Virus record (IMG/VR): IMGVR_UViG_3300028887_000077 | Coordinates: 32,001-96,000 of that record | Origin: a virus | Lineage: Duplodnaviria; Caudoviricetes | Length of the DNA stretch: 64,000 bases | Reading direction: 5' to 3' (one strand) | In this document: positions 6,764 through 43,898 of the stretch, in pieces | How the letters are laid out: each line of letters begins with the position of its first letter | How positions within the stretch are numbered: the first letter of the stretch is position 1 | Program-made: the position numbers and the translations under genes | The notes under the pieces: generated by a model | Database searches by the model: none | What the model saw: only the letters and a program-made list of their open reading frames with translations | What the model was told of the DNA's origin: nothing

Positions 6764-7780
6764 ATGCTCGCTGACATTAAAAAGATGTTGATCGAAAGTC
6801 CAGAGTCTATCGTCAAACTCCTCGAAGAATATGACTTCTGTCATATTCATCAAAAGCCGTCTGAGATCCGGTTCGCACGGAACGAAGAAGGCGGACAGAA
6901 TATAAGCATCAGGCTTGAGAATAATGACGGGCTGTATGTTAAGGATTTTGTCACAGGAGAGGGCGGAGACATAATCGCATACATTATGAACTCTCGTGAT
7001 GTTAATTTCATGAGAGTCCTTTCCTCTGTCAAAAATATACTTGGTCTTGAGGATGATTGGAGACCTAGGAAAATAAAATCGATATTCGGGGGGTTTTACG
7101 ATGGGATTGGCAAAGATGTCAAAGAAGAGCTGCCCGAGTACCCCGAGGATATTATGGACCAGTATTATGACGCCGGAAATAAGGCGTGGATTCGAGACGG
7201 AATACCGATTGACGTTCAGAAAAAGTTTGGCGTCAGGTACGATATATCCGACGATGTGATTGTATTCCCGTGGCGAAGTGCGGCGACCGGTGGCATAATT
7301 GCTGTTAAGGCGCGTCGCAATTATAAGATTGAAGACGGGGGTGGTCCGAAATATTATTTTCCATACAAAGGCGCCGTCAGTAAGTCGCTTTATGGATACA
7401 GTGAGAACTACGCAACACTTGTAAAAGACAGGATTGTCATGGTGTTTGAAAGCGAAAAGTCTGTGATGGTTTCATACGCCTTTGGGTTGCGTAACACTGT
7501 GGCCATTGGCTCTAACTCCCTGTCCGAAGAGCAGGCACGTTTGATTGCTGCGCTCGACCCAAAAGAGGTGTGGTTTATGCTTGACAAGGACCTACCTCTA
7601 AAAGAGACTCAGGCAAACATCAAAAACCTGAAAAAATATCTTGTCATGAAAGACTGTAAGATCTTATTCTGGAACTGGACAAAAAACACAAGCGTGTGTG
7701 AAAAGGGGGCGCCGGTCGATATGGGCCAATGCGTCTTCGACGATATATGTAAGAACGAAATGGAGGTTGTGCCGGCGTGA
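6764..7780 (+). CDS. DNA primase (TOPRIM)
   Basis: GDII, LYG, VFESEKSV, LDKD TOPRIM motifs; ATG after AAGGAG. Confidence 0.8.
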   Translation: MLADIKKMLIESPESIVKLLEEYDFCHIHQKPSEIRFARNEEGGQNISIRLENNDGLYVKDFVTGEGGDIIAYIMNSRDVNFMRVLSSVKNILGLEDDWRPRKIKSIFGGFYDGIGKDVKEELPEYPEDIMDQYYDAGNKAWIRDGIPIDVQKKFGVRYDISDDVIVFPWRSAATGGIIAVKARRNYKIEDGGGPKYYFPYKGAVSKSLYGYSENYATLVKDRIVMVFESEKSVMVSYAFGLRNTVAIGSNSLSEEQARLIAALDPKEVWFMLDKDLPLKETQANIKNLKKYLVMKDCKILFWNWTKNTSVCEKGAPVDMGQCVFDDICKNEMEVVPA

Positions 7781-19180: not shown

Positions 19181-19693
19181 ATGAAAGAAAAAAAATATTT
19201 TGTAATTATTGACATGCAAAACGACTTTGTAACCGGCGCGTTAAAGAACGACGACGCTGTCGGCGTTGCAGAAAAGATCGTTTACTATTATCAGCACAAT
19301 CGGTTTGATCGTGTCGTATTTACAATGGACACCCACAATCAAGATTATCTCAATACTCTCGAGGGCAAAAACCTGCCGGTTCCACATTGCATCAAAGGAA
19401 CAAAGGGATGGGAGATTGTTGATGAACTGTTGTTTTTAACGAAGCAATCTACGGTTGTTGAAAAAACAACATTCGGCAGCCTTTCGTGGAAAAAAATTAT
19501 TAAAGATCCGACAGAAATCACTATCTGTGGTCTGGTGTCTGATATTTGTGTTTGTAGCAACGCTTTGATTTTGCGCGCTATGTTCCCAAACACAAAAATT
19601 AAGGTTGTTTCTAATCTGTGTGCGGGATTAACCAAAGAAAAACACAACGCCGCTATGAGCGTAATGGAATCTTGCCAGATTGAGGTAGAATAA
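19181..19693 (+). CDS. pncA: Nicotinamidase (isochorismatase-family cysteine hydrolase)
   Basis: IDMQNDF, DTH, PHC..GT.GW, EKTTFGS, GLVSDICV; NAD-gene context. Confidence 0.8.
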   Translation: MKEKKYFVIIDMQNDFVTGALKNDDAVGVAEKIVYYYQHNRFDRVVFTMDTHNQDYLNTLEGKNLPVPHCIKGTKGWEIVDELLFLTKQSTVVEKTTFGSLSWKKIIKDPTEITICGLVSDICVCSNALILRAMFPNTKIKVVSNLCAGLTKEKHNAAMSVMESCQIEVE

Positions 19694-20556
19694 TGATTAA
19701 AGTAAACGGTCATAAGGTAGAGCTTGAAACGTTCGGTGACAATACTCTGAAGTGCAAGACGATCGAGCCTGGCTGGCTCGTATCGGACAATCTCGGAATC
19801 AAAGTCGGAGACTGTGCAACGCTTACATGGGCATATGATAACGATGCCGAACTATTTGCAGTTTGCTGCCTTGCAAAAGAGCTTCACGAGGAGACTAATA
19901 CCGTATATCTCGAACTGCCCTACATTCCGCATGCAAGGCAAGACAGAAAAGTCAGTGGACGACTCTTTACTTTGAAGGTTTTTGCAGAGATCATCAATTC
20001 TCTCAATTTCAAACGAGTATATGTACTCGATCCACACTCTGATGTCAGTACTGCTCTTATCGATCGTGTTAGGGTCAGGGACTATGAGTTCTTCACTCCG
20101 TCGAAAGTCGATAATCTTGATGCGGTCATGTTTCCAGATACCGGCGCGGCAAAGAAGTACAGCACTACTATGGACGTCGGCAATTTTCCTGTTATTATCG
20201 GCAACAAACATCGTAATGCGGAAGGCCGAGTCGAGTCCTATGAGCTTATGAACTTCCCAGAAGGCGCAAAAACGGTCGCCATTATCGACGATATTTGCTC
20301 TTACGCAGGCACACATGTGGCAGCAGCAAAAGCCCTTAAAGAAAAGGGTGTTGAAAAGGTCATCCTTGTAATTTCACATTGTGAATATAATATTGCAAAA
20401 GGGGCAGCATTTGAATATATAGATGTAGTATATACTACAGATAGTATTTTGGATTTAAATAATACAGAAATTGATCCTGCCGTATTAACAAAATTGCAGG
20501 AAGCAGAAAAAACAGGTAAGCTTGTGATAACACATCATTTTAGACAGGACTACTAA
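19693..20556 (+). CDS. Prs-like pyrophosphokinase (Adps-type)
   Basis: PYIPHARQDR, FTLKVFAEIINSL, DPHSDV, FPDTGA, IIDDICSYAGT. Confidence 0.85.
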   Translation: MIKVNGHKVELETFGDNTLKCKTIEPGWLVSDNLGIKVGDCATLTWAYDNDAELFAVCCLAKELHEETNTVYLELPYIPHARQDRKVSGRLFTLKVFAEIINSLNFKRVYVLDPHSDVSTALIDRVRVRDYEFFTPSKVDNLDAVMFPDTGAAKKYSTTMDVGNFPVIIGNKHRNAEGRVESYELMNFPEGAKTVAIIDDICSYAGTHVAAAKALKEKGVEKVILVISHCEYNIAKGAAFEYIDVVYTTDSILDLNNTEIDPAVLTKLQEAEKTGKLVITHHFRQDY

Positions 20557-20649: not shown

Positions 20650-21750
20650 ATGATTAGTTGCTTACTTTGTTTAAATGAATTTAAAAATGAGCAGGTATTA
20701 ACAAAGCATTTACAAAAAGTACACAGTATTTCAAGAAAAGAATATGCAGATCAGTGGCTTAAATTGGACCATATTTGTCCATTTTGTGGACAAGACCGCG
20801 CATTTAAGCACATTAAATATGATAGAACTTGCGGATCAAACTCTTGTATAGCAGAATTAAAACGACAAGTCTATTTAGAACGCTATGGAGTGATAAATCC
20901 GGGCCAGCGACAGATCCAAAGAGAACTAAATAAACATAATTTTGATGACCCAGAGAAATTAAGGGCAAGAAACAACAAAACTAAACAAACCTCGCTAGTA
21001 AAGTATAGTACCGAGAGCCCTAATCAAGCAAAAGAAGTACAAGATAAATCTAAGCAGACATTACTGACTAAATATGGCGTAGCCTTTGCCACACAGCTAC
21101 CTCAATGTAAAACAGCCGGGCATACACAAGGGGCTCAAGCAAAGCGGGCCGAAACTCTAAAACAGAATAACTTAGAAAAATATGGGGCAGCAAATGTTTT
21201 TCAATTAGAGGCAATAAAAATAAAGTCTAAGAAAACTAAATTTAGTCGGTATGGTAACGAGTACTGGACTAATCCAGAAAAAGCTACACAGACTTGTCTA
21301 TTACACTTTGGTGTTCGCAGATTTGCTCAGTCGGAACTTGCCAAAAAACAACATCATAGAGTAATAAGATACAACAATTTAGTATTTGATAGCAAATTAG
21401 AATTGGCTTTTTATTTGTTTTGTGTTGAACATCAACTTAATGTACAGATTAAGCCTGCCAGACTGCCGTTTTTTGTAGATAATAAATTGTACTATTATTT
21501 TCCAGATTTCAGTATTAATAACATTTACTATGAGTGTAAAGGTAAACATTTATTAAAATATTCAGAAACTGGTACAATTATAGGATTATCTAATCCCTAT
21601 ACATCAAAAAAGACAGAGCAAGAGAAATTAACAATACAACATCATTTAGATGCCAAGTATGCTTGTATGCTAGAAAATAACATACAAATTATTACAGGTG
21701 AAGAAGATTTCTATAAAGTTTTAAACAATTCAGAAAATAATAAGAGGTAA
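20650..21750 (+). mobile_element. Free-standing homing endonuclease-like gene (AT-rich)
   Basis: N-terminal C2H2/Cys Zn motifs, repeated T.L.KYG units, C-terminal DS.LE..F...YFPDF...YECKG (PD-(D/E)XK); visibly AT-richer than its neighbours. Confidence 0.75.
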
Positions 21751-21754
21751 AAGT

Positions 21755-23278
21755 ATGTTTAAACTCAATCCGTTACTCGAAAGTGATTACTACAAGCAAG
21801 TCCATTGGGGCCAGTATCCGAAAAACGTGACCAAAGTCGTTTCGTACTGGGTTCCTCGCGGGACGCGTATTCCAGGCTGGAATTACGCGGTCATGTTCGG
21901 TCTTCAGGGGTTCATCAAGGAATTTTTAATCGAGGATTTCAATCAGTATTTCTTTGATCGGAATATCGACGAAGTTCTTGACGAGTACCACCACATCCTC
22001 GACAATACTCTCGGAGAAAAACTCGCCGGGATTGACCGTATCGAAGATCTCTGGCATCTCGGATATCTGCCTATCGAGATCAAGGCGCTTCCGGAGGGAA
22101 CTAAGGTACCCCTTAAGGTTCCTATGTTCGAAATCTCCAACACTCACCCGCGGTTTGCGTGGCTTACGAACGCTCTTGAAAGCGTGATTTCTTGTGAGAT
22201 GTGGCACGCAATGCTTTCCGCAAACGTCGGCGTGGCGTATCGTGAGATTGTTGACAAGTATTACGATGAAACTTGCGACGACGTGATTCCACACAGACGC
22301 GCTCTTGGCGATTTTGCGATGCGCGGGCAGGAGTCGTACAGAAGCGCAACGAAATCTTCTGCCGCATGGCTTCTCTCTTTCGTGAATACCGCAACGGTTC
22401 CGGCCATTCCGTATCTCGAGAAATACTACAACTGCGACTGCGTGAAAGAAGAGGTTGGCTTCGGCGCTCCTTCGACTGAACACAGCGTCATGTGCTCCAA
22501 CTTCGCAGTCGACGGTGACGAGATCACGATGGTTAAGCGTCTACTTACCGAGATCTATCCGCACAACACTTTCACGATGGTATCCGACAGTTACGACTAC
22601 TGGAACCTTGTCGAAAATATTATCCCGCAGTGCAAGAAGGAAATTCTCGAACACGACGGTATCTTCATGGTCCGCGGCGACTCCGGCGATCCGGTTGAGG
22701 TCGTCACTAAGACCGTTTTCAAACTCTGGGACATTTTCGGCGGGACGGTAAACTCGAAGGGCTATAAGGTCCTCGATAAGCACGTGAAAGCGATCTACGG
22801 CGACTCTATCACGATGAGGCGCGCCAAAAATATCTACGAGATTCTGAAAAACGCCGGGTTCGCAGCTTCGAACGTGAGCCTTGGCGTCGGGTCCTTCTCG
22901 ATGCAGTGCTATGAGTCTGCAAGTGAAGACGGTACGGTTAAACTGAGTCCGTTCACCCGCGACACCCTGAACTTTGCGATCAAAGCAACTTACTGCGAGA
23001 CGTCCGATGGCAAGCAGATTCCGATCTTCAAGAATCCGAAAGAAATGGCATTCAAGAAGTCGAACAAAGGTTGTATCGCTGTCTACTACGGCGAGAATAA
23101 GCTCGACGAGGCTGGAAACGTTGTCTTCGCAGATTTTCTTGCGATCGACGGTAGAACGTTCGAAGACGTCAGCAACGATCCGAACAATAAGCTTCAGCCC
23201 GTTTTCAAAGACGGCAAGATGCTCAAGGAGTACAGCCTGAAAGAGATCAGAGACAGACTGTGGGATGGTAGGTTCTGA
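21755..23278 (+). CDS. nadV: NAMPT/NadV-family phosphoribosyltransferase (Namat-like; probably nicotinate-accepting)
   Basis: DYYKQVH, FGLQ, DFAMRG, STEHSVM, VSDSYD, RGDSGDP, IYGDSIT, TRDT..FAIKAT, KKSNKG. Confidence 0.9.
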   Translation: MFKLNPLLESDYYKQVHWGQYPKNVTKVVSYWVPRGTRIPGWNYAVMFGLQGFIKEFLIEDFNQYFFDRNIDEVLDEYHHILDNTLGEKLAGIDRIEDLWHLGYLPIEIKALPEGTKVPLKVPMFEISNTHPRFAWLTNALESVISCEMWHAMLSANVGVAYREIVDKYYDETCDDVIPHRRALGDFAMRGQESYRSATKSSAAWLLSFVNTATVPAIPYLEKYYNCDCVKEEVGFGAPSTEHSVMCSNFAVDGDEITMVKRLLTEIYPHNTFTMVSDSYDYWNLVENIIPQCKKEILEHDGIFMVRGDSGDPVEVVTKTVFKLWDIFGGTVNSKGYKVLDKHVKAIYGDSITMRRAKNIYEILKNAGFAASNVSLGVGSFSMQCYESASEDGTVKLSPFTRDTLNFAIKATYCETSDGKQIPIFKNPKEMAFKKSNKGCIAVYYGENKLDEAGNVVFADFLAIDGRTFEDVSNDPNNKLQPVFKDGKMLKEYSLKEIRDRLWDGRF

Positions 23279-23760
23279 TGGTACAATATTTTAAAGGAGA
23301 TCTTCTTGAAAGCGGCTGTGACGTAATCTGTCATCAGACTAATTGCGTCGGGGCTATGGGCAGTGGAATCGCAAGACAGATTCGCGAGACTTATCCCGAA
23401 ACCTACGAAGCTCTCAGAGAGCGGTTTGAAAACGGTCTTGCAAAACTCGGCGAGTGCGATTTCGTGGAGCTCAAAAGCAAAGACCCTTACGGTCCTGCGA
23501 TCACCAACAATTACGTAGTCAACTGTTACAGCCAGTTTGACTGCTGGCCGCGCGGGGTGCGGCATACCGATTACGACGCGTTCAGAGAGTGCTGCAAGAA
23601 GATCAAAGAACGCTTCGATGGTAAAAACTTCCGGATCGGTTTTCCTTATAAAATCGGTTCCGCTCTCGGGGGCGGAGACTGGGAAGTTATGAAACAAATC
23701 ATTGAAGAAGAATTTAAAGATAACAACTGGAGGGTTGAAGTATGGCAACTAAACTGTTAA
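23278..23760 (+). CDS. Macrodomain protein (ADP-ribose binding/hydrolase)
   Basis: GDLL, HQTNCVGAMGSGIA, FPYKIGSALGGGDW. Confidence 0.88.
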   Translation: MVQYFKGDLLESGCDVICHQTNCVGAMGSGIARQIRETYPETYEALRERFENGLAKLGECDFVELKSKDPYGPAITNNYVVNCYSQFDCWPRGVRHTDYDAFRECCKKIKERFDGKNFRIGFPYKIGSALGGGDWEVMKQIIEEEFKDNNWRVEVWQLNC

Positions 23761-24533
23761 GAGAGGTTTTGGCGTGGCTTGAGGACTACAAGAAGCACGC
23801 AGGATGCAAAGGTGTGGTCCTCGGAATTTCTGGCGGAAAAGACAGCACCACGGTCGCGATGTTGGCGACGAAGGTCTGGGGCAGGGACGTTGTTGGCGTT
23901 CTTATGCCCAACGGCGTTCAGGCTGATATTGAGGATTCTCGTGCGGTTTGTGATTGTCTTGAGCTCAGGAATATTACCGTAAATATTGGTAATGCGTTCG
24001 GCAAGCTCTGCGATGACGTTAATCGCGGTCTTGAATCCTTCGGAGCGGAAGTTACCCCTAAGACCAAAACCAACATTCCGCCTCGTCTCAGGATGACTAC
24101 CCTGTACACCGTCGCGCAGTCTCTCGGCTATCGCGTGATCGGCACCGGCAACGCAAGCGAAGGCTACGTAGGCTGGACTACCAAGTTCGGCGACAGCGCG
24201 TGCGACCTGAATCCGCTCGGCAATCTGACCTGTTCTGAGGTCGTTGCTCTCGGTTCTGAGCTCGCGGAGGAGTTCGGGCTTCCTCTGAAGTACGTTCAGA
24301 AAATCCCGTCTGACGGTCTGTCCGGTCGTTCCGATGAAGATAACTTCGGCTTTACCTACCGGCAGCTTGACGCCTTTATGGTCGATGGCTGCGACGCAAA
24401 GATAGAAGGAGAACCCATCCCAGAGGAGATCAGAGAAAAGATTGGCGCTATGCACGCTATGTCTGCACACAAAAGAGCTCTCCCCAGAACATTTGAACCG
24501 ACCACAGAGTTTATGCGCCGGTTTAAACGATAA
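23742..24533 (+). CDS. nadE: NH3-dependent NAD+ synthetase
   Basis: GISGGKDST, NIPPRLRM, GTGNASE, TKFGD, PSDGL, DEDNFG, HKR. Confidence 0.92.
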   Translation: MATKLLREVLAWLEDYKKHAGCKGVVLGISGGKDSTTVAMLATKVWGRDVVGVLMPNGVQADIEDSRAVCDCLELRNITVNIGNAFGKLCDDVNRGLESFGAEVTPKTKTNIPPRLRMTTLYTVAQSLGYRVIGTGNASEGYVGWTTKFGDSACDLNPLGNLTCSEVVALGSELAEEFGLPLKYVQKIPSDGLSGRSDEDNFGFTYRQLDAFMVDGCDAKIEGEPIPEEIREKIGAMHAMSAHKRALPRTFEPTTEFMRRFKR

Positions 24534-25017: not shown

Positions 25018-25053
25018 ATTTTAAAATATTTTAAAGAAGTTGTCAAAAACCAC

Positions 25054-25082
25054 TTGACAACTTCTTTTTAATGTGTTATAAT
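25054..25082 (+). promoter_or_regulatory. Sigma-A/70 promoter with -35 inside a 14-bp inverted repeat
   Basis: TTGACA-17-TATAAT; AAAGAAGTTGTCAA-7-TTGACAACTTCTTT. Confidence 0.85.
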
Positions 25083-25111: not shown

Positions 25112-26347
25112 ATGTTTGAAATTAAAGGATCTATCGGCTCTGCGAAGTGTTACGCAAAAACTGTCGAGCAGGCAGCAATTGATCAGATCAAGAGAATGTG
25201 CGATTACAAGCTCACGGAAGGAAGCGATATCTGCATCATGCCAGACGTTCACGCTGGTGCGGGGTGTACCATCGGAACCACCATGACCATCACCGATAAG
25301 GTGTGTCCAAATATTGTTGGCGTTGATATCGGATGTGGTATGCTTACTATCCGGCTAGACAAAAGGGCAGACGAGCTTGATCTCGCAAAGATCGATGAAG
25401 CGGCCCATTATATTCCGTCCGGAATGAACGTATGGGAAGAATGCGACAACCGGTTTGATCTGAGCGAGCTTCGTTGTTTGAAGAAGCTACATGATGTAGA
25501 TAGGCTCGAAAGATCTCTTGGAACGCTTGGCGGTGGTAATCACTTTATTGAGGTTGACAAAGACAACAACGGTTTTGCCTACCTGGTTATTCATTCCGGA
25601 AGTCGCAACCTTGGTAAACAAGTCGCTGATATCTATCAGAAGATCGCCATCGGCCTCCATGATGGCAAACAAAAGATCGCTGAGGAGAAACGTGAAGCCA
25701 TCCGCTCTCTCAAAGAGGCCGGAAGAGCATCAGAGATTCAGGCGACCATCAAAGAAATCGATCGAAAATATAAAGATTGTGGCATGGATGTCCCGGAAGA
25801 TATTTGTTGGCTTTACGGTAAGGACATGGAGGACTATCTGCATGATCTGAAGATTTGTCAGGATTTTGCCGTCAAGAATAGAAAGAAAATGGCAAACATT
25901 ATTCTTGAGAAATGTGGGCTTGAAGCAAACACGTTTTTTCATACTATCCATAACTACATATCTCTTGACGAAATGATTCTTCGTAAAGGCGCTATTTCGG
26001 CGCGCGCTGGAGAGGTCGTTTTGATTCCGATCAATATGCGCGACGGATCAGTGATTGCAGTCGGAAAGGGTAACCCAGAGTGGAACTGCTCTGCTCCGCA
26101 CGGAGCCGGTCGGCTAATGTCTCGCGCTGAAGCAAAGAGAACCCTAAATATCGAAGATTATAAAAACTCTATGAATGGTATCTACACTACGTCGGTAAAC
26201 GAAGGGACTATCGACGAGGCCCCGATGGTTTATAAGCCGATTGAGGAAATCGTCGAGGCAATTAAAGACACCGTCGATATCGTCGGTATCATCAAGCCGA
26301 TTTACAACTTTAAGGCTGCGGAAGACGAGCCGATTTGGAGGAAATAA
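25112..26347 (+). CDS. rtcB: RtcB RNA 3'-phosphate/5'-OH ligase
   Basis: MPDVHAG, VGVDIGCG, GTLGGGNHF, HSGSR, HNY, RKGA, HGAGR, DEAPMVYK. Confidence 0.95.
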   Translation: MFEIKGSIGSAKCYAKTVEQAAIDQIKRMCDYKLTEGSDICIMPDVHAGAGCTIGTTMTITDKVCPNIVGVDIGCGMLTIRLDKRADELDLAKIDEAAHYIPSGMNVWEECDNRFDLSELRCLKKLHDVDRLERSLGTLGGGNHFIEVDKDNNGFAYLVIHSGSRNLGKQVADIYQKIAIGLHDGKQKIAEEKREAIRSLKEAGRASEIQATIKEIDRKYKDCGMDVPEDICWLYGKDMEDYLHDLKICQDFAVKNRKKMANIILEKCGLEANTFFHTIHNYISLDEMILRKGAISARAGEVVLIPINMRDGSVIAVGKGNPEWNCSAPHGAGRLMSRAEAKRTLNIEDYKNSMNGIYTTSVNEGTIDEAPMVYKPIEEIVEAIKDTVDIVGIIKPIYNFKAAEDEPIWRK

Positions 26348-30024: not shown

Positions 30025-30351
30025 ATGACAGAGAAGTATATTAGCGTCAATGCGTTTATCAGCACATTAAAAGAAATGCAAAAGGAGTTCTGCAATTGCA
30101 GCAGATCGTTTGGCAAGACGGCAAGTTGTGTCCTTGAAGAAACCATTAATAAACTTCAATCATTCCCTACCGTCGATGTTACCCCAGTTATTCATGCTCA
30201 CTGGATCCAGAAAAAGGAAATGATTCGTTCGCCCGAAGCGAAAAACTACAACTGTTCGGCGTGTGGCAAAGAGAGCTTTGCGTATCCGAACTGCCCGTAT
30301 TGCAGGGCCATTATGGATGAGGAAGCGGAAGATCACAACTATGAGGATTGA
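30025..30351 (+). CDS. Zn-ribbon phage protein (PTADV family)
   Basis: PTVDVTPVIHAHW...CSACG...CPYCRAIMD. Confidence 0.65.
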   Translation: MTEKYISVNAFISTLKEMQKEFCNCSRSFGKTASCVLEETINKLQSFPTVDVTPVIHAHWIQKKEMIRSPEAKNYNCSACGKESFAYPNCPYCRAIMDEEAEDHNYED

Positions 30352-30865
30352 AAATGGTATCCTATATGGTGTTCGCAACGAAGACCTTAATGCAGATGGG
30401 TCCTTTATCGTTCCGAACAGTGTTACGAGAATCTGGTGGTATGCGTTCTACAATTGCTCCGAGCTAAAATCTGTCAAAATTCATAACGGCATCCGGTTCA
30501 TCGGAGCAGGTGCATTTTCTGGATGCCATAATCTAAAATCAAAACCTGATAACTATAAAACGTTTTCGGTTACCGAAACTGGTAAACTTGTGTGCATGGG
30601 CAAGACCTATAAAGTAGGTAAAAAATCTAAGGTAAGAGGAAAATTAAATCTATGTAAAAACGGTCTACACTACTGCACCAATATCTTTGACATTTTTACC
30701 TACCGTTGTGGTGAATACGGCAAAGATTTTGTGATTGGAGTTTGCGAAGTATCCGATGAGAACGTCGGTGACAAGGTTAATTCTAAACGGTGCGCCCGTT
30801 GGGTAAAACCAACGAAAATTCTGACGAAAGAAGAAGTAATCGGAATTTTGAATGGAACCAAATAA
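30341..30865 (+). CDS. BspA-type LRR protein with C-terminal LC.NG.HYC domain
   Basis: VPNSVTRI..YAFYNCSELKSV.I..G...IG.GAFSGC; LCKNGLHYC. Confidence 0.75.
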   Translation: MRIENGILYGVRNEDLNADGSFIVPNSVTRIWWYAFYNCSELKSVKIHNGIRFIGAGAFSGCHNLKSKPDNYKTFSVTETGKLVCMGKTYKVGKKSKVRGKLNLCKNGLHYCTNIFDIFTYRCGEYGKDFVIGVCEVSDENVGDKVNSKRCARWVKPTKILTKEEVIGILNGTK

Positions 30866-31761: not shown

Positions 31762-32022
31762 ATGGAATACGCATTTTTGATTGACGTTTGTCAAAGAGCA
31801 ATTGGTAGTCAGGACGAGAACTACACGCACCCCGAAGTATATTCGACCTTTGTAAAGGCGAAAAACTATGTGGACCGAATTGTTCAAGACATTTCGCACC
31901 GGTATCCGGATGCTAACATAACTTACAAAGAAAATGTTGTTGGATTTATGTCAGTGTCTGTTTTGTATGACGGTGGCCATCGGTTTGTTGAGTATAACAT
32001 CAAAGAAGTTGAGGTTGTTTAA
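31762..32022 (+). CDS. Hypothetical protein
   Basis: AAAGGAG RBS before ATG 31762. Confidence 0.55.
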   Translation: MEYAFLIDVCQRAIGSQDENYTHPEVYSTFVKAKNYVDRIVQDISHRYPDANITYKENVVGFMSVSVLYDGGHRFVEYNIKEVEVV

Positions 32023-35388: not shown

Positions 35389-35456
35389 AAAAAAATTAGA
35401 AGTGCTATTTGTGAGTAGGAGTATTAACAGTGAAACAAGGCGAGCGAGGAGAACAA

Positions 35457-36128
35457 ATGATTACCTTAAAAAGGATTGAAAACGGTGTCCTATACCATGT
35501 CTACAACGAGGACATCGACGCAGATGGCTCGTTTATCGTCCCGAACGGAGTCACGAGTATAGCAGGCTGTGCATTCTGGGGATGTTTTGGTTTAACCTCA
35601 GTCACCATCCCCGATAGCGTTACATATATTGGGAGAGGGGCGTTCGGGCGGTGTTCCGAACTGACTTCTGTCACAATACCGAACAGCGTTACCAGTATCG
35701 GAGAAAGTGCGTTCTATGGCTGCACCAAACTAACATCTGTCATAATCGGCAATGGCGTTACAAGAATCGAAAAATATGCGTTCGACAACTGCATTACTCT
35801 GACATCAAAAAGAGCAAATTACAAGGCATTTGCCCTCACTAAAAGTGGCGAACTGAAATGTCGAAACGAACTTTACACTGTTGGGGAAAAATCAACTGTC
35901 GAAAATAACCTCAGACTCTGTGAAAACGGTATTCACTACTGCACAAATCTTTTCGACATTTTTAACTATTACTCTGGCGTATATGGTAAAGATTTTGTAA
36001 TTGGTATTTGCGAAGTCTCTGACAGGAACATTGGTGGTGGAGACGATTCCAAACGCTGTGCAAGATGGGTAAAACCGAAGAAAATTCTTACGAGAGAAGA
36101 AGTCATTAAAATTATGAATGGGGATTAA
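35457..36128 (+). CDS. BspA-type LRR protein, longer paralog of 30341..30865
   Basis: [21 protein letters not shown]; about four LTSVTIP.SVT.IG..AF..C repeats; LCENGIHYC. Confidence 0.8.
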
Positions 36129-42917: not shown

Positions 42918-42959
42918 GGGGGCGTGGCGAAACCGGCATACGCATCAGACTCATGATCT
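42918..42959 (+). pseudogene. 5' half of a Leu-type tRNA running into the next ORF
   Basis: GGGGGCG TG GCG AAACCGGCATA CGC A TCAGA CTCATGA TCT; no adjacent T arm. Confidence 0.5.
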
Positions 42960-43339
42960 ATACAACATATTTTGCTAACCTTAAACGACTTCATGGTATA
43001 ACACCAATCGCAATCTGTGCCAAGCCACCGGCTGGATACAACGGGCTATGTTACAGGCGTTTGGCGCCCTCATATGCGACATTAATGGCATACAAGACAA
43101 TTACCGACCAAGATGCGTACATCAAGAGTTATAACGAATCGGTTCTCTCACAACTCGATCCGGTCCGCGTCGTACGCGAATTGTCTGCTCTGTCCCAGAC
43201 AGAAGACTTTGCTTTGGTGTGTTATGAGAGGCCAGACGCTTTCTGCCATAGACATCTTGTGAGAGAGTGGCTGATTCAAAACGGATTCGAATGTGAAGAA
43301 TATCCAAATCAAACTAATAATGGAGGAAACAATGGGTAA
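42953..43339 (+). CDS. DUF488-family protein
   Basis: MIYTTYFA, LAPS, LVCYERPDAFCHRHLV..WL. Confidence 0.75.
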   Translation: MIYTTYFANLKRLHGITPIAICAKPPAGYNGLCYRRLAPSYATLMAYKTITDQDAYIKSYNESVLSQLDPVRVVRELSALSQTEDFALVCYERPDAFCHRHLVREWLIQNGFECEEYPNQTNNGGNNG

Positions 43340-43898
43340 TAAACTTCCGATTGTGGTAAACCTTTTCGCAGGCCCCGGAGCCGGTAAAAGCACCGGCGCG
43401 GCATACATCTTCGCAGAGCTAAAGATCGCGAATGTGAATGCAGAGCTCGTTACAGAGTTTGCCAAAGACCTTGTGTGGCAGCAAGACATGACGGCACTGA
43501 AGAACCAGATCTATGTTCTTGGCAACCAGAGCCTTAGGCTGTCTAGATGTATCGACAAGGTCGATGTGATTGTAACAGACAGTCCGTTGTTAATGAATTG
43601 TACATATTGTTCACAGGACGAACCCTATTATGAGAGCTTTCAGAATGTTGTTTATAGTGATTGGTCGAAGTATAATAACTACAATTTCTTTATTAAGAGG
43701 GTAAAGCCATATAAAAAGGTCGGGCGCCTTCAAGACGAAGAGGGTGCGAAGATCAAAGATGCAGAGATAGCAGGTTGCCTGAATAAGTTTAACGAAAAAT
43801 TTGAATATGTTCCCGGAGATAAAAACGGGTATGACTACATCGTAAAAAAGATTCTTTGCGCTGTTAACAACATTAAGAACGAGGAGGAAAGAAAATGA
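43332..43898 (+). CDS. NadR/Ttd14-type P-loop kinase (AAA_28)
   Basis: NLFAGPGAGKST, EFAKDLVW, VTDSPLL, GRLQ. Confidence 0.75.
   Translation: MGNKLPIVVNLFAGPGAGKSTGAAYIFAELKIANVNAELVTEFAKDLVWQQDMTALKNQIYVLGNQSLRLSRCIDKVDVIVTDSPLLMNCTYCSQDEPYYESFQNVVYSDWSKYNNYNFFIKRVKPYKKVGRLQDEEGAKIKDAEIAGCLNKFNEKFEYVPGDKNGYDYIVKKILCAVNNIKNEEERK

Follow-up and report, generated by a model that had tools for sequence, protein, structure and literature searches.

A phage NAD+ cassette with a Namat-like transferase that lacks the amide-binding aspartate: a candidate route from nicotinate and ADP-ribose to NAD+

The DNA considered here—the window, in what follows—is a stretch of 64,000 nucleotides that spans positions 32,001 to 96,000 of IMG/VR record IMGVR_UViG_3300028887_000077 (Duplodnaviria; Caudoviricetes). 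The record is complete, 150,027 bases long with terminal repeats, and represents a large gut phage that encodes its own PolIII alpha, DnaB, RecD2, ClpP and RtcB. On one strand, the window carries a cassette of genes for, in order, PncA, an Adps-like enzyme, a homing endonuclease, a Namat-like transferase of the NAMPT fold, a macro-domain protein that resembles Adpp, and NadE. The transferase has an alanine in place of the aspartate that binds the amide of nicotinamide in its relatives. On balance, we favor the view, from sequence comparisons, that this enzyme joins nicotinate to ADP-ribose pyrophosphate (ADPR-PP) to form deamido-NAD (NaAD), which NadE would then amidate to NAD+. This would amount to a deamidated version of NARP1, one of the NAD+ reconstitution pathways of phages. 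The residues concerned, the set of genes, their linkage, and their conservation are matters of observation, and we begin with the residues. The gene and its relevant parts are these:

21755..23278, + strand: Namat-like transferase of the NAMPT fold, 507 amino acids (aa), with a non-acidic base pocket; predicted nicotinate:ADPR-PP transferase
22385..22393, + strand: codons AAT ACC GCA for Asn211-Thr212-Ala213, equivalent to Gly217-Thr218-Asp219 of NAMPT and Gly213-Thr214-Asp215 of Namat from Bacillus phage SPbetaL1
22472..22474, + strand: codon TCG for Ser240, equivalent to Ala244 of NAMPT and Ala242 of SPbetaL1 Namat
22910..22951, + strand: 14-residue insertion, Tyr386-Pro399, in the selectivity-clamp motif; predicted beta-hairpin

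The segment DFAMRGQESYRSATKSSAAWLLSFVNTATV is part of this open reading frame (ORF). Residue equivalences were taken from phmmer alignments against PDB sequences, in which residues 166-246 of the transferase fall on residues 174-250 of mouse NAMPT (2gvl_A) and run without a gap from the DF motif to the TDT motif. Ala213 (GCA, 22391-22393) lies opposite Asp219 of mouse NAMPT and Asp215 of SPbetaL1 Namat, just where the original prediction had put it. Other pairs in the alignment with mouse NAMPT are Phe187 with Phe193, Arg190 with Arg196, Asn211 with Gly217, Ser240 with Ala244, and His243 with His247, and Asp11 and Tyr13 of the DYYK motif correspond to Asp13 and Tyr15 of SPbetaL1 Namat. The catalytic histidine of NAMPT (His247) and its base-stacking residues (Phe193 and Tyr18) are matched, that is to say, by His243, Phe187 and Tyr13. 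D11, Y13, F187, R190, E242 and H243 are invariant in alignments of 15 and of 53 family members, and the earlier statement that the equivalents of Tyr18, Phe193, Arg196 and His247 are retained was correct.

Loss of the aspartate co-varies with two more changes in the pocket, Gly217 to Asn and Ala244 to Ser. The nicotinamide pocket of SPbetaL1 Namat is made up of Phe189, Arg192, Asp215, Ala242, Arg306, Asp13' and Tyr15' (PMC12774641 counts Ala242 among them); five of the seven are kept here, and the two that differ are Asp215, now Ala, and Ala242, now Ser. The motif NTAT is present in the transferase and in all of the best 120 of 7978 homologues (121/121; E <= 1e-30; 62-92% identical), and with alanine in every one, and the ORF intact, a chance substitution or a pseudogene can be ruled out. 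Farther afield, among the 150 nearest representatives of 50%-identity clusters, drawn from 3304 family members (E <= 0.001), the Asp219 column holds 92 Asp, 1 Glu, 35 Ala, 19 Ser and 1 Val, and two proteins do not have the column. Position 242 of SPbetaL1 Namat follows suit: 92 of the 93 acidic types have Ala there, and 52 of the 55 non-acidic ones have Ser. In the loci from viral contigs that we compared, Asp-type enzymes read GTDT at this place, most Ala-type enzymes N[TS]AT, and Ser-type enzymes KTST, with Ala at position 242 in the Asp type and Ser in both of the others.

In the crystal structure of SPbetaL1 Namat, Asp215 hydrogen-bonds the nicotinamide, and the substitution D215A reduces NAD+ formation from nicotinamide 8.1-fold (PMC12774641). 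For human NAMPT, a review table enters D219S, after Khan et al. 2006, as a switch in substrate affinity, and a second review cites that study for the finding that substrate specificity is set by Asp219. The natural Ser variants of the family equal human D219S, and so they fit the idea that loss of the amide-binding aspartate goes with use of nicotinate.

The identity of this residue goes hand in hand with the neighbors of the gene. Hidden Markov models of the five cassette proteins were made from the first loci, and all ORFs within 6-7 kb of each transferase were searched with them. The loci came from MT835544.1, SPbetaL1, GH15, scans of viral sequences, a scan of reference genomes, a scan of metagenomes, and the present stretch. 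There were 272 (found with a transferase query, plus the present stretch). A type could be assigned to 271; of these, 180 were flanked on each side by 3.5 kb or more, and dereplication at 90% identity left 115. Eighty loci fetched by way of NadE were excluded from this count to guard against circularity. The result was as follows:

Ala/Ser type, 83 loci: PncA in 83, Adps in 83, NadE in 79, macro-domain protein in 17
Asp/Glu type, 32 loci: PncA in 0, Adps in 32, NadE in 0, macro-domain protein in 3

The correlation of Ala or Ser at this site with pncA and nadE as neighbors, which the original prediction had raised, is plain in these numbers. The four exceptions (L004, L274, L311 and L341), all Ala-type, have no NadE within reach and are missing nothing else, and position 242 is Ser in all 83 loci of the first kind and Ala in all 32 of the second. 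As an independent control, five whole Asp-type phage records were searched with the Pfam models NAD_synthase and Isochorismatase, and neither matched in any of them (0/5 and 0/5). Comparative genomics, then, strongly supports the notion that a non-acidic site goes with use of nicotinate, and with PncA and NadE.

The reverse test leads to the same place. Among the 80 viral loci fetched with the NadE of the cassette, 67 have an Ala/Ser-type transferase (54 Ala, 13 Ser), none has an Asp-type, and 13 have no transferase. Eight of these 13 encode PncA and NadE and neither transferase nor Adps; in the three of the eight that are annotated (L099, L126 and L130) these are accompanied by genes for a classical PncB and a NadD-like protein, and in locus L171 a NadD-like gene adjoins NadE. 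In phages, it would seem, the place between PncA and NadE is taken either by PncB and NadD or, alternatively, by Adps and an Ala/Ser-type transferase.

The second substrate is suggested by the family to which the transferase belongs. It is 42% identical to SPbetaL1 Namat (tblastn, E 1e-115), and in phmmer searches of the PDB the SPbetaL1 structures 9w5x and 9w5w come first (E 1.9e-112), followed by HdNadV of Haemophilus ducreyi (9ke8, E 1.1e-88) and mammalian NAMPT (~1e-51). An AlphaFold2 model made from a 53-sequence alignment (mean predicted local distance difference test score, pLDDT, 93.9; predicted TM-score, pTM, 0.92) gives the same ranking in Foldseek: 9w5x and 9w5w (TM-score on the query, TMq, 0.88-0.90), then HdNadV, then human NAMPT (0.84), with identities of ~40% to Namat and ~29% to NAMPT/NadV in the Foldseek rows. 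Its Pfam domains are NAPRTase and NAMPT_N; the NAPRTase_N domain of PncB-type enzymes (PF17767) is absent from the protein, and NAMPT_N stands in its place. Judged by sequence, the transferase is closer to Namat, the ADPR-PP-using enzyme of NARP1, than to NAMPT. Calling it a NAMPT-family enzyme, as was done at first, holds good for the fold and the catalytic residues, and needs refining in that its nearer kin is Namat and an Adps-like gene always stands beside it. In the databases, NCBIfam (NF006629) labels the family 'nicotinate phosphoribosyltransferase', Asp-type members included, and PHROGs 'nicotinamide phosphoribosyl transferase'. In NARP1, Adps makes ADPR-PP from ADP-ribose and ATP, and Namat combines this with nicotinamide to form NAD+ directly (PMC12774641). 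With Namat the closest relative, and an Adps-like gene always adjacent, the likely donor here is ADPR-PP, and the likely product NaAD rather than nicotinic acid mononucleotide (NaMN).

The other genes of the cassette are as follows; pncA and nadE do flank the transferase, as had been reported:

19181..19693, + strand: PncA-like nicotinamidase, 170 aa; Pfam Isochorismatase, E 6.4e-22; its stop overlaps the start of the Adps-like gene
19693..20556, + strand: Adps-like paralogue of Prs, 287 aa; predicted ADP-ribose pyrophosphokinase making ADPR-PP
20650..21750, + strand: free-standing homing-endonuclease-like gene, 366 aa; Pfam DUF7487, E 5.2e-14; PHROG homing endonuclease, E 1.9e-16
23278..23760, + strand: macro-domain protein, Adpp-like, 160 aa; predicted ADP-ribose-1''-phosphate phosphatase; its start overlaps the stop of the transferase
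23742..24533, + strand: NH3-dependent NAD+ synthetase NadE, 263 aa; Pfam NAD_synthase, E 2.3e-50; 19-base overlap with the macro-domain gene

Three neighboring pairs share bases at their ends (PncA with the Adps-like gene, the transferase with the macro gene, and the macro gene with NadE), and the cassette is translationally coupled. The best solved relative of the PncA-like protein is the pyrazinamidase/nicotinamidase of Pyrococcus horikoshii (1ilw/1im5), whose residues D10, D52-x-H54, H71, K94 and C133 lie opposite D11, D50-x-H52, H69 (in PHC), K95 and C133; these we take to be the Asp-Lys-Cys triad and the Asp-x-His...His metal site. Against the NCBIfam nicotinamidase model the protein scores 27.9 bits (cut-off 174). 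NadE is clear-cut (TIGR00552, 178 bits against a cut-off of 63.65), with the motif SGGKDS and no glutaminase domain. The macro-domain protein falls just below the cut-off for Pfam Macro (21.5 bits against 22; E 2.3e-4), matches PHROG 335, 'phosphatase' (E 3.4e-44), and in the PDB finds BT1257 and Appr-1-p processing proteins (E 5e-11). Its likeness to yeast Poa1p is weak (E 1.4e-4) and confined to residues 2-61. The homing-endonuclease-like gene is a mobile passenger outside the pathway; among 40 loci, L001-L040, only L002 has a homologue at the same place (57% identity).

The Adps-like gene bears directly on the donor. It lies 1.2 kb upstream of the transferase, with only the homing endonuclease between, and its product is 35% identical to SPbetaL1 Adps (133 bits, E 5e-42); the best solved canonical Prs, that of B. 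subtilis, gives 53 bits. Against TIGR01251, the model for Prs, it scores 83.9 bits, below the 113-bit cut-off, and in a FastTree of 88 Prs-like rows seven canonical Prs proteins stand apart from all Adps-type rows with support of 99. The model for the NadD/NMNAT family (PF01467) has no match in the complete 150,027-base phage genome, and matches in all 14 of 14 control genomes.

The operon is not confined to phages. Among reference genomes, taken one per species, the best 80 matches to the transferase are all Ala-type (80/80), most of them in gut Lachnospiraceae, Ruminococcus and Oscillospiraceae, and 70 of the 80 have PncA, Adps and NadE together. In gut Clostridia the operon is found on the chromosome; it lacks the macro domain there, and includes NrtR, a regulator that ADP-ribose, its effector, frees from DNA, according to the regulatory account in PMC2330246. 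In the cultured isolate Pseudoruminococcus massiliensis Marseille-P3876 (L200, 5632-11324) it comprises, in this order, PncA, an Adps-like gene, an Ala-type transferase, a glutamine-dependent NadE and, last, NrtR. Since AgrB, Tim44-like genes and asd flank it, it is not part of a prophage. A canonical Prs above the cut-off is encoded by each of five bacterial genomes that have the operon (5/5), in addition to the sub-threshold paralogue in the operon, and four of the five have PncB elsewhere; the operon is therefore no mere duplicate of the Preiss-Handler enzymes. That the transferase stands in for a PncB missing from the host was considered, too, and rejected as a general rule on the strength of those four genomes.

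Put together, these parts suggest a five-enzyme route by which the phage could restore NAD+ once NAD+-cleaving defenses of the host have split it. PncA would turn the released nicotinamide into nicotinate. The Adpp-like macro protein would, where needed, trim ADP-ribose-1''-phosphate to ADP-ribose, and the Adps-like enzyme would pyrophosphorylate the ADP-ribose to ADPR-PP. The Ala-type transferase, its pocket apparently rebuilt for nicotinate (Ala for Asp at 213, Asn for Gly at 211, Ser for Ala at 240), would then join nicotinate and ADPR-PP to form NaAD, without an adenylyltransferase. NadE, finally, would convert NaAD to NAD+, and the ammonia released by PncA could, in principle, feed this step. 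We infer all of these catalytic steps, and above all that from nicotinate and ADPR-PP to NaAD.

A number of points weigh against this reading, and they are best taken together. The aspartate is less decisive than was first supposed. The original prediction took it as established that Asp219 excludes nicotinic acid, and this is too strong: the titles of PDB entries 6ta0 and 6ta2 describe human NAMPT with nicotinic acid and PRPP (phosphoribosyl pyrophosphate), and with NaMN, and an enzyme that in its wild-type form crystallizes with both shows that the aspartate is no clean switch. In the review table that lists D219S, moreover, D219A appears as a loss of activity, not a switch. The aspartate is a determinant of preference rather than an absolute gate against nicotinate, and a non-acidic residue signifies, as far as sequence goes, a lost amide contact, and not proof that use of nicotinate has been gained. 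That nicotinate use accounts for the flanking pncA and nadE, as originally proposed, is upheld by the linkage and tempered by these facts. The linkage itself has fewer independent origins than the counts might imply. In a FastTree of 141 rows (the transferase and representatives; unrooted, with the trait columns removed and 10 rows that covered less than 80% of the match columns dropped) the Asp and Ala/Ser labels need only two changes. All Asp types fall together, in a group of 92 rows (support 96), the Ala/Ser types that bear the insertion form another of 37 rows (support 99), and the Ala/Ser types with an intact clamp lie in between, so the association with PncA and NadE amounts to one or two ancient events that have been maintained across deep divergence, not to many independent gains. 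Then there is the cost: compared with plain NARP1, the detour through nicotinate takes two extra enzymes and one extra ATP. Our guess would be that charged nicotinate is kept in the cell, and that nicotinamide is lost by leakage or, in any event, to deamidation by the host.

The remaining points concern the donor, and they come down on the side of the main rival, namely that the transferase is a nicotinate phosphoribosyltransferase in the NAMPT fold. The Prs-like enzyme would then make PRPP, nicotinate and PRPP would give NaMN, and NadD of the host and NadE of the phage would finish the job, in a boosted form of Preiss-Handler salvage. What sets Namat apart from NAMPT is a 'selectivity clamp' for adenine with the signature GSXΦXΦXΦTRD (PMC12774641), and in the subclade of the transferase this signature is broken. 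Here it reads GSFSMQC, then YESASEDGTVKLSP, then FTRD, against GSFTYQYNTRD in SPbetaL1: counted from GS through TRD, the motif has 25 residues instead of 11, positions 3, 5 and 7 are Phe, Met and Cys, and two of the three aromatics are lost (Tyr394 to Met, Tyr396 to Cys). In the model, DSSP assigns strands to 385-389 and 395-399, and the block has a pLDDT of 92-95. The insertion and the missing aromatics make use of ADPR-PP less secure here than in relatives with the clamp intact. Namat, besides, keeps a PRPP-dependent activity in vitro, about half that of human NAMPT (PMC12774641), and the NCBIfam name of the family points the same way, for what it is worth given that Asp-type members share it. 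A gene of the PF01467 family occurs in four of the 11 cassette-bearing phage records searched. One is in L002, the closest viral relative of the window, where a 137-aa cytidylyltransferase-like ORF with an HxGH motif (7171-7584) directly follows NadE; a typical NadD would be longer, and this ORF looks more like the TagD/RfaE type.

Against PRPP stands the Prs-like gene itself, which falls short of the Prs cut-off and groups with Adps. Phages that have PncA and NadE without Namat and Adps are found, where annotated (three of the eight), to have PncB and NadD, whereas the present phage genome has no NadD-family gene, and the bacteria that bear the operon already own PncB (4/5) and canonical Prs (5/5). 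The clamp, too, cuts both ways. Arg40 of SPbetaL1, the stacking residue of the clamp loop, is kept as Arg38, in PRGTRI. Forty-two Ala/Ser-type loci from metagenomes have the intact 11-residue clamp, GSYTYQYxTRD, and keep the same neighbors: PncA in 36, Adps in 39 and NadE in 32, with many of the loci short. In the viral collection a search with query P0256 returned no clamp-intact Ala/Ser relatives, and one with P0137 returned mostly Asp-type loci. The grouping with Adps, the missing PF01467 gene, the relatives with intact clamps, and the separate Prs and PncB of bacteria favor ADPR-PP over PRPP as the probable donor, and we regard the PRPP route as unlikely, if by no means negligible. A second possibility, that the enzyme is an ordinary Namat that uses nicotinamide and ADPR-PP, tolerates the loss of the aspartate, and merely sits beside a PncA and a NadE that feed the Preiss-Handler pathway of the host, strikes us as quite improbable. 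SPbetaL1 D215A does retain about one eighth of its activity (PMC12774641), and all of the other catalytic residues are conserved. The three pocket positions change jointly, however, and are fixed down to ~40% identity; PncA is linked in 83/83 loci versus 0/32; and a phage nicotinamidase would destroy the transferase's own substrate. Less probable still is a remodeled pocket that takes some other pyridine or base analogue, or a product that is not an NAD+ precursor at all, a decoy or signal nucleotide, for example. The modeled clamp hairpin, specific to the clade, might hint at this, but a nicotinamidase and an NAD+ synthetase are its constant neighbors, joined in bacteria by NrtR, and these fit nicotinate and NaAD and no other base and product that we can name.

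The cassette combines features of several known systems. It shares with NARP1 of SPbetaL1 the adjoining Prs-like Adps and NAMPT-fold transferase, and with SPbetaL1 Namat the residues Asp13, Tyr15, Phe189, Arg192, Arg306, Asp308, His245, TRD and Arg40 of the clamp. It differs in Asp215 to Ala, Gly213 to Asn, Ala242 to Ser, and the 14-residue hairpin of the clamp, and in the addition of PncA and NadE; the predicted base becomes nicotinate, the predicted product NaAD, and the pathway would gain two more steps. In 15% of phage NARP1 operons, according to a 2026 preprint (bioRxiv 10.64898/2026.01.28.702374), a Poa1p-like macro protein acts as an ADP-ribose-1''-phosphate phosphatase, Adpp, and the resulting system, NARP1-AP (Adps, Adpp and Namat), is exemplified by Vibrio phage Gary. 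The present cassette resembles it in having a macro-domain gene in the operon beside the transferase, its product weakly like Poa1p, and differs in that this gene is joined with PncA and NadE; the macro gene occurs in only 17 of the 83 Ala/Ser-type loci. By gene content the cassette would amount to NARP1-AP extended by PncA and NadE and fitted with a changed transferase, the macro protein being assigned by its place in the operon and its family matches. From Preiss-Handler salvage (PncA, PncB, NadD, NadE) it takes the beginning, PncA, and the end, NadE, by way of nicotinate and NaAD, with the difference that Adps-like and Namat-like enzymes replace PncB and NadD, so that the ribosyl-adenylate portion would come ready-made from ADP-ribose. 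With NAMPT and NadV (human, mouse and HdNadV) it has in common the fold, the catalytic histidine and the base-stacking Phe and Tyr; unlike them it has no Asp219 equivalent, is paired with Adps, and is more distant from them than from Namat. The NrtR-regulated prs-nadV operons of gamma-proteobacteria likewise pair a Prs paralogue with a NadV-like gene under an ADP-ribose-responsive regulator, and in the operon lists of that paper (PMC2330246) they appear without pncA or nadE, no pncA-prs-nadV-nadE operon being among them.

The listings of full-text searches showed no paper on this cassette or this reaction, although supplementary Table S1 of the 2026 aRES preprint, on NARP1-associated genes, may list PncA or NadE. 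The terms NadE, PncA and nicotinic/nicotinate occur nowhere in the main text of the 2024 NARP preprint (bioRxiv 10.1101/2024.02.11.579819), nor in the main text of the 2026 aRES preprint (bioRxiv 10.64898/2026.01.28.702374), nor in the Adps structure paper. The passages on NAD+ genes in a jumbo-phage preprint (bioRxiv 10.1101/2024.04.18.590177) describe phage pncB-nadD-nadE clusters and NAMPT genes, not the present set.

Other features of the family and the window deserve a brief account. Many family representatives are large, 550-1100 aa, and match the query in two to five stretches (proteins P0122-P0270). Big insertions often follow about residue 318 of the transferase (in L172, 4597-6393, for example, one of ~100 aa) and may be inteins or inserted domains. 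Downstream of NadE, RtcB RNA ligase (25112-26347) is preceded by a perfect sigma-70 consensus at 25033-25082 (TTGACA, 17 nt, TATAAT, with TG), which shares bases with a 15-bp inverted repeat; here the transcription unit of the NAD cassette ends. Among public sequencing runs, two DNA runs contain this stretch, one of which may be where the DNA came from, and no RNA run is listed. RtcB is often in or beside the cassette (L009-L032), and it lies between Adps and the transferase in ~20 near-identical viral loci. Its proximity may reflect a link between RNA repair and the handling of ADP-ribose-1''-phosphate, or synteny alone. Next to a DUF488-N3a protein (42953-43339), on its downstream side, comes an AAA_28 P-loop protein (43293-43898); AAA_28 includes the ribosylnicotinamide kinase domain of NadR, and this may be another NAD-related gene. 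Two proteins (30263-30865 and 35430-36128) have BspA-type leucine-rich repeats followed by DUF7666, and may be phage host-interaction proteins.

In its widest form our proposal is that a large, unrecognized branch of Namat enzymes, marked by Ala or Ser for Asp219 and Ser for Ala244, catalyzes a new reaction, nicotinate plus ADPR-PP to NaAD, as the basis of a deamidated NARP1 that needs no NadD. In gut and rumen phages it would serve against NAD+-depleting immunity, and gut Clostridia, under NrtR, would use it for housekeeping recycling of ADP-ribose to NAD+. We give this a little better than an even chance. If true, it would add a new reaction to NAD+ metabolism, in which a pyridine carboxylate is joined directly to activated ADP-ribose, and a fourth kind of NAD+ reconstitution pathway in phages beside NARP1, NARP2 and NARP3. 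It would furnish a two-residue rule, too, by which to split a family that databases label uniformly, and it would raise the question of why the costlier detour through nicotinate is taken. The non-acidic type makes up more than one-third of the 150 nearest sequence clusters (55/150), and the best 80 matches among reference genomes come mostly from gut Clostridia. If it operates as we suppose, the route may matter for the turnover of niacin and NAD+ in gut communities.

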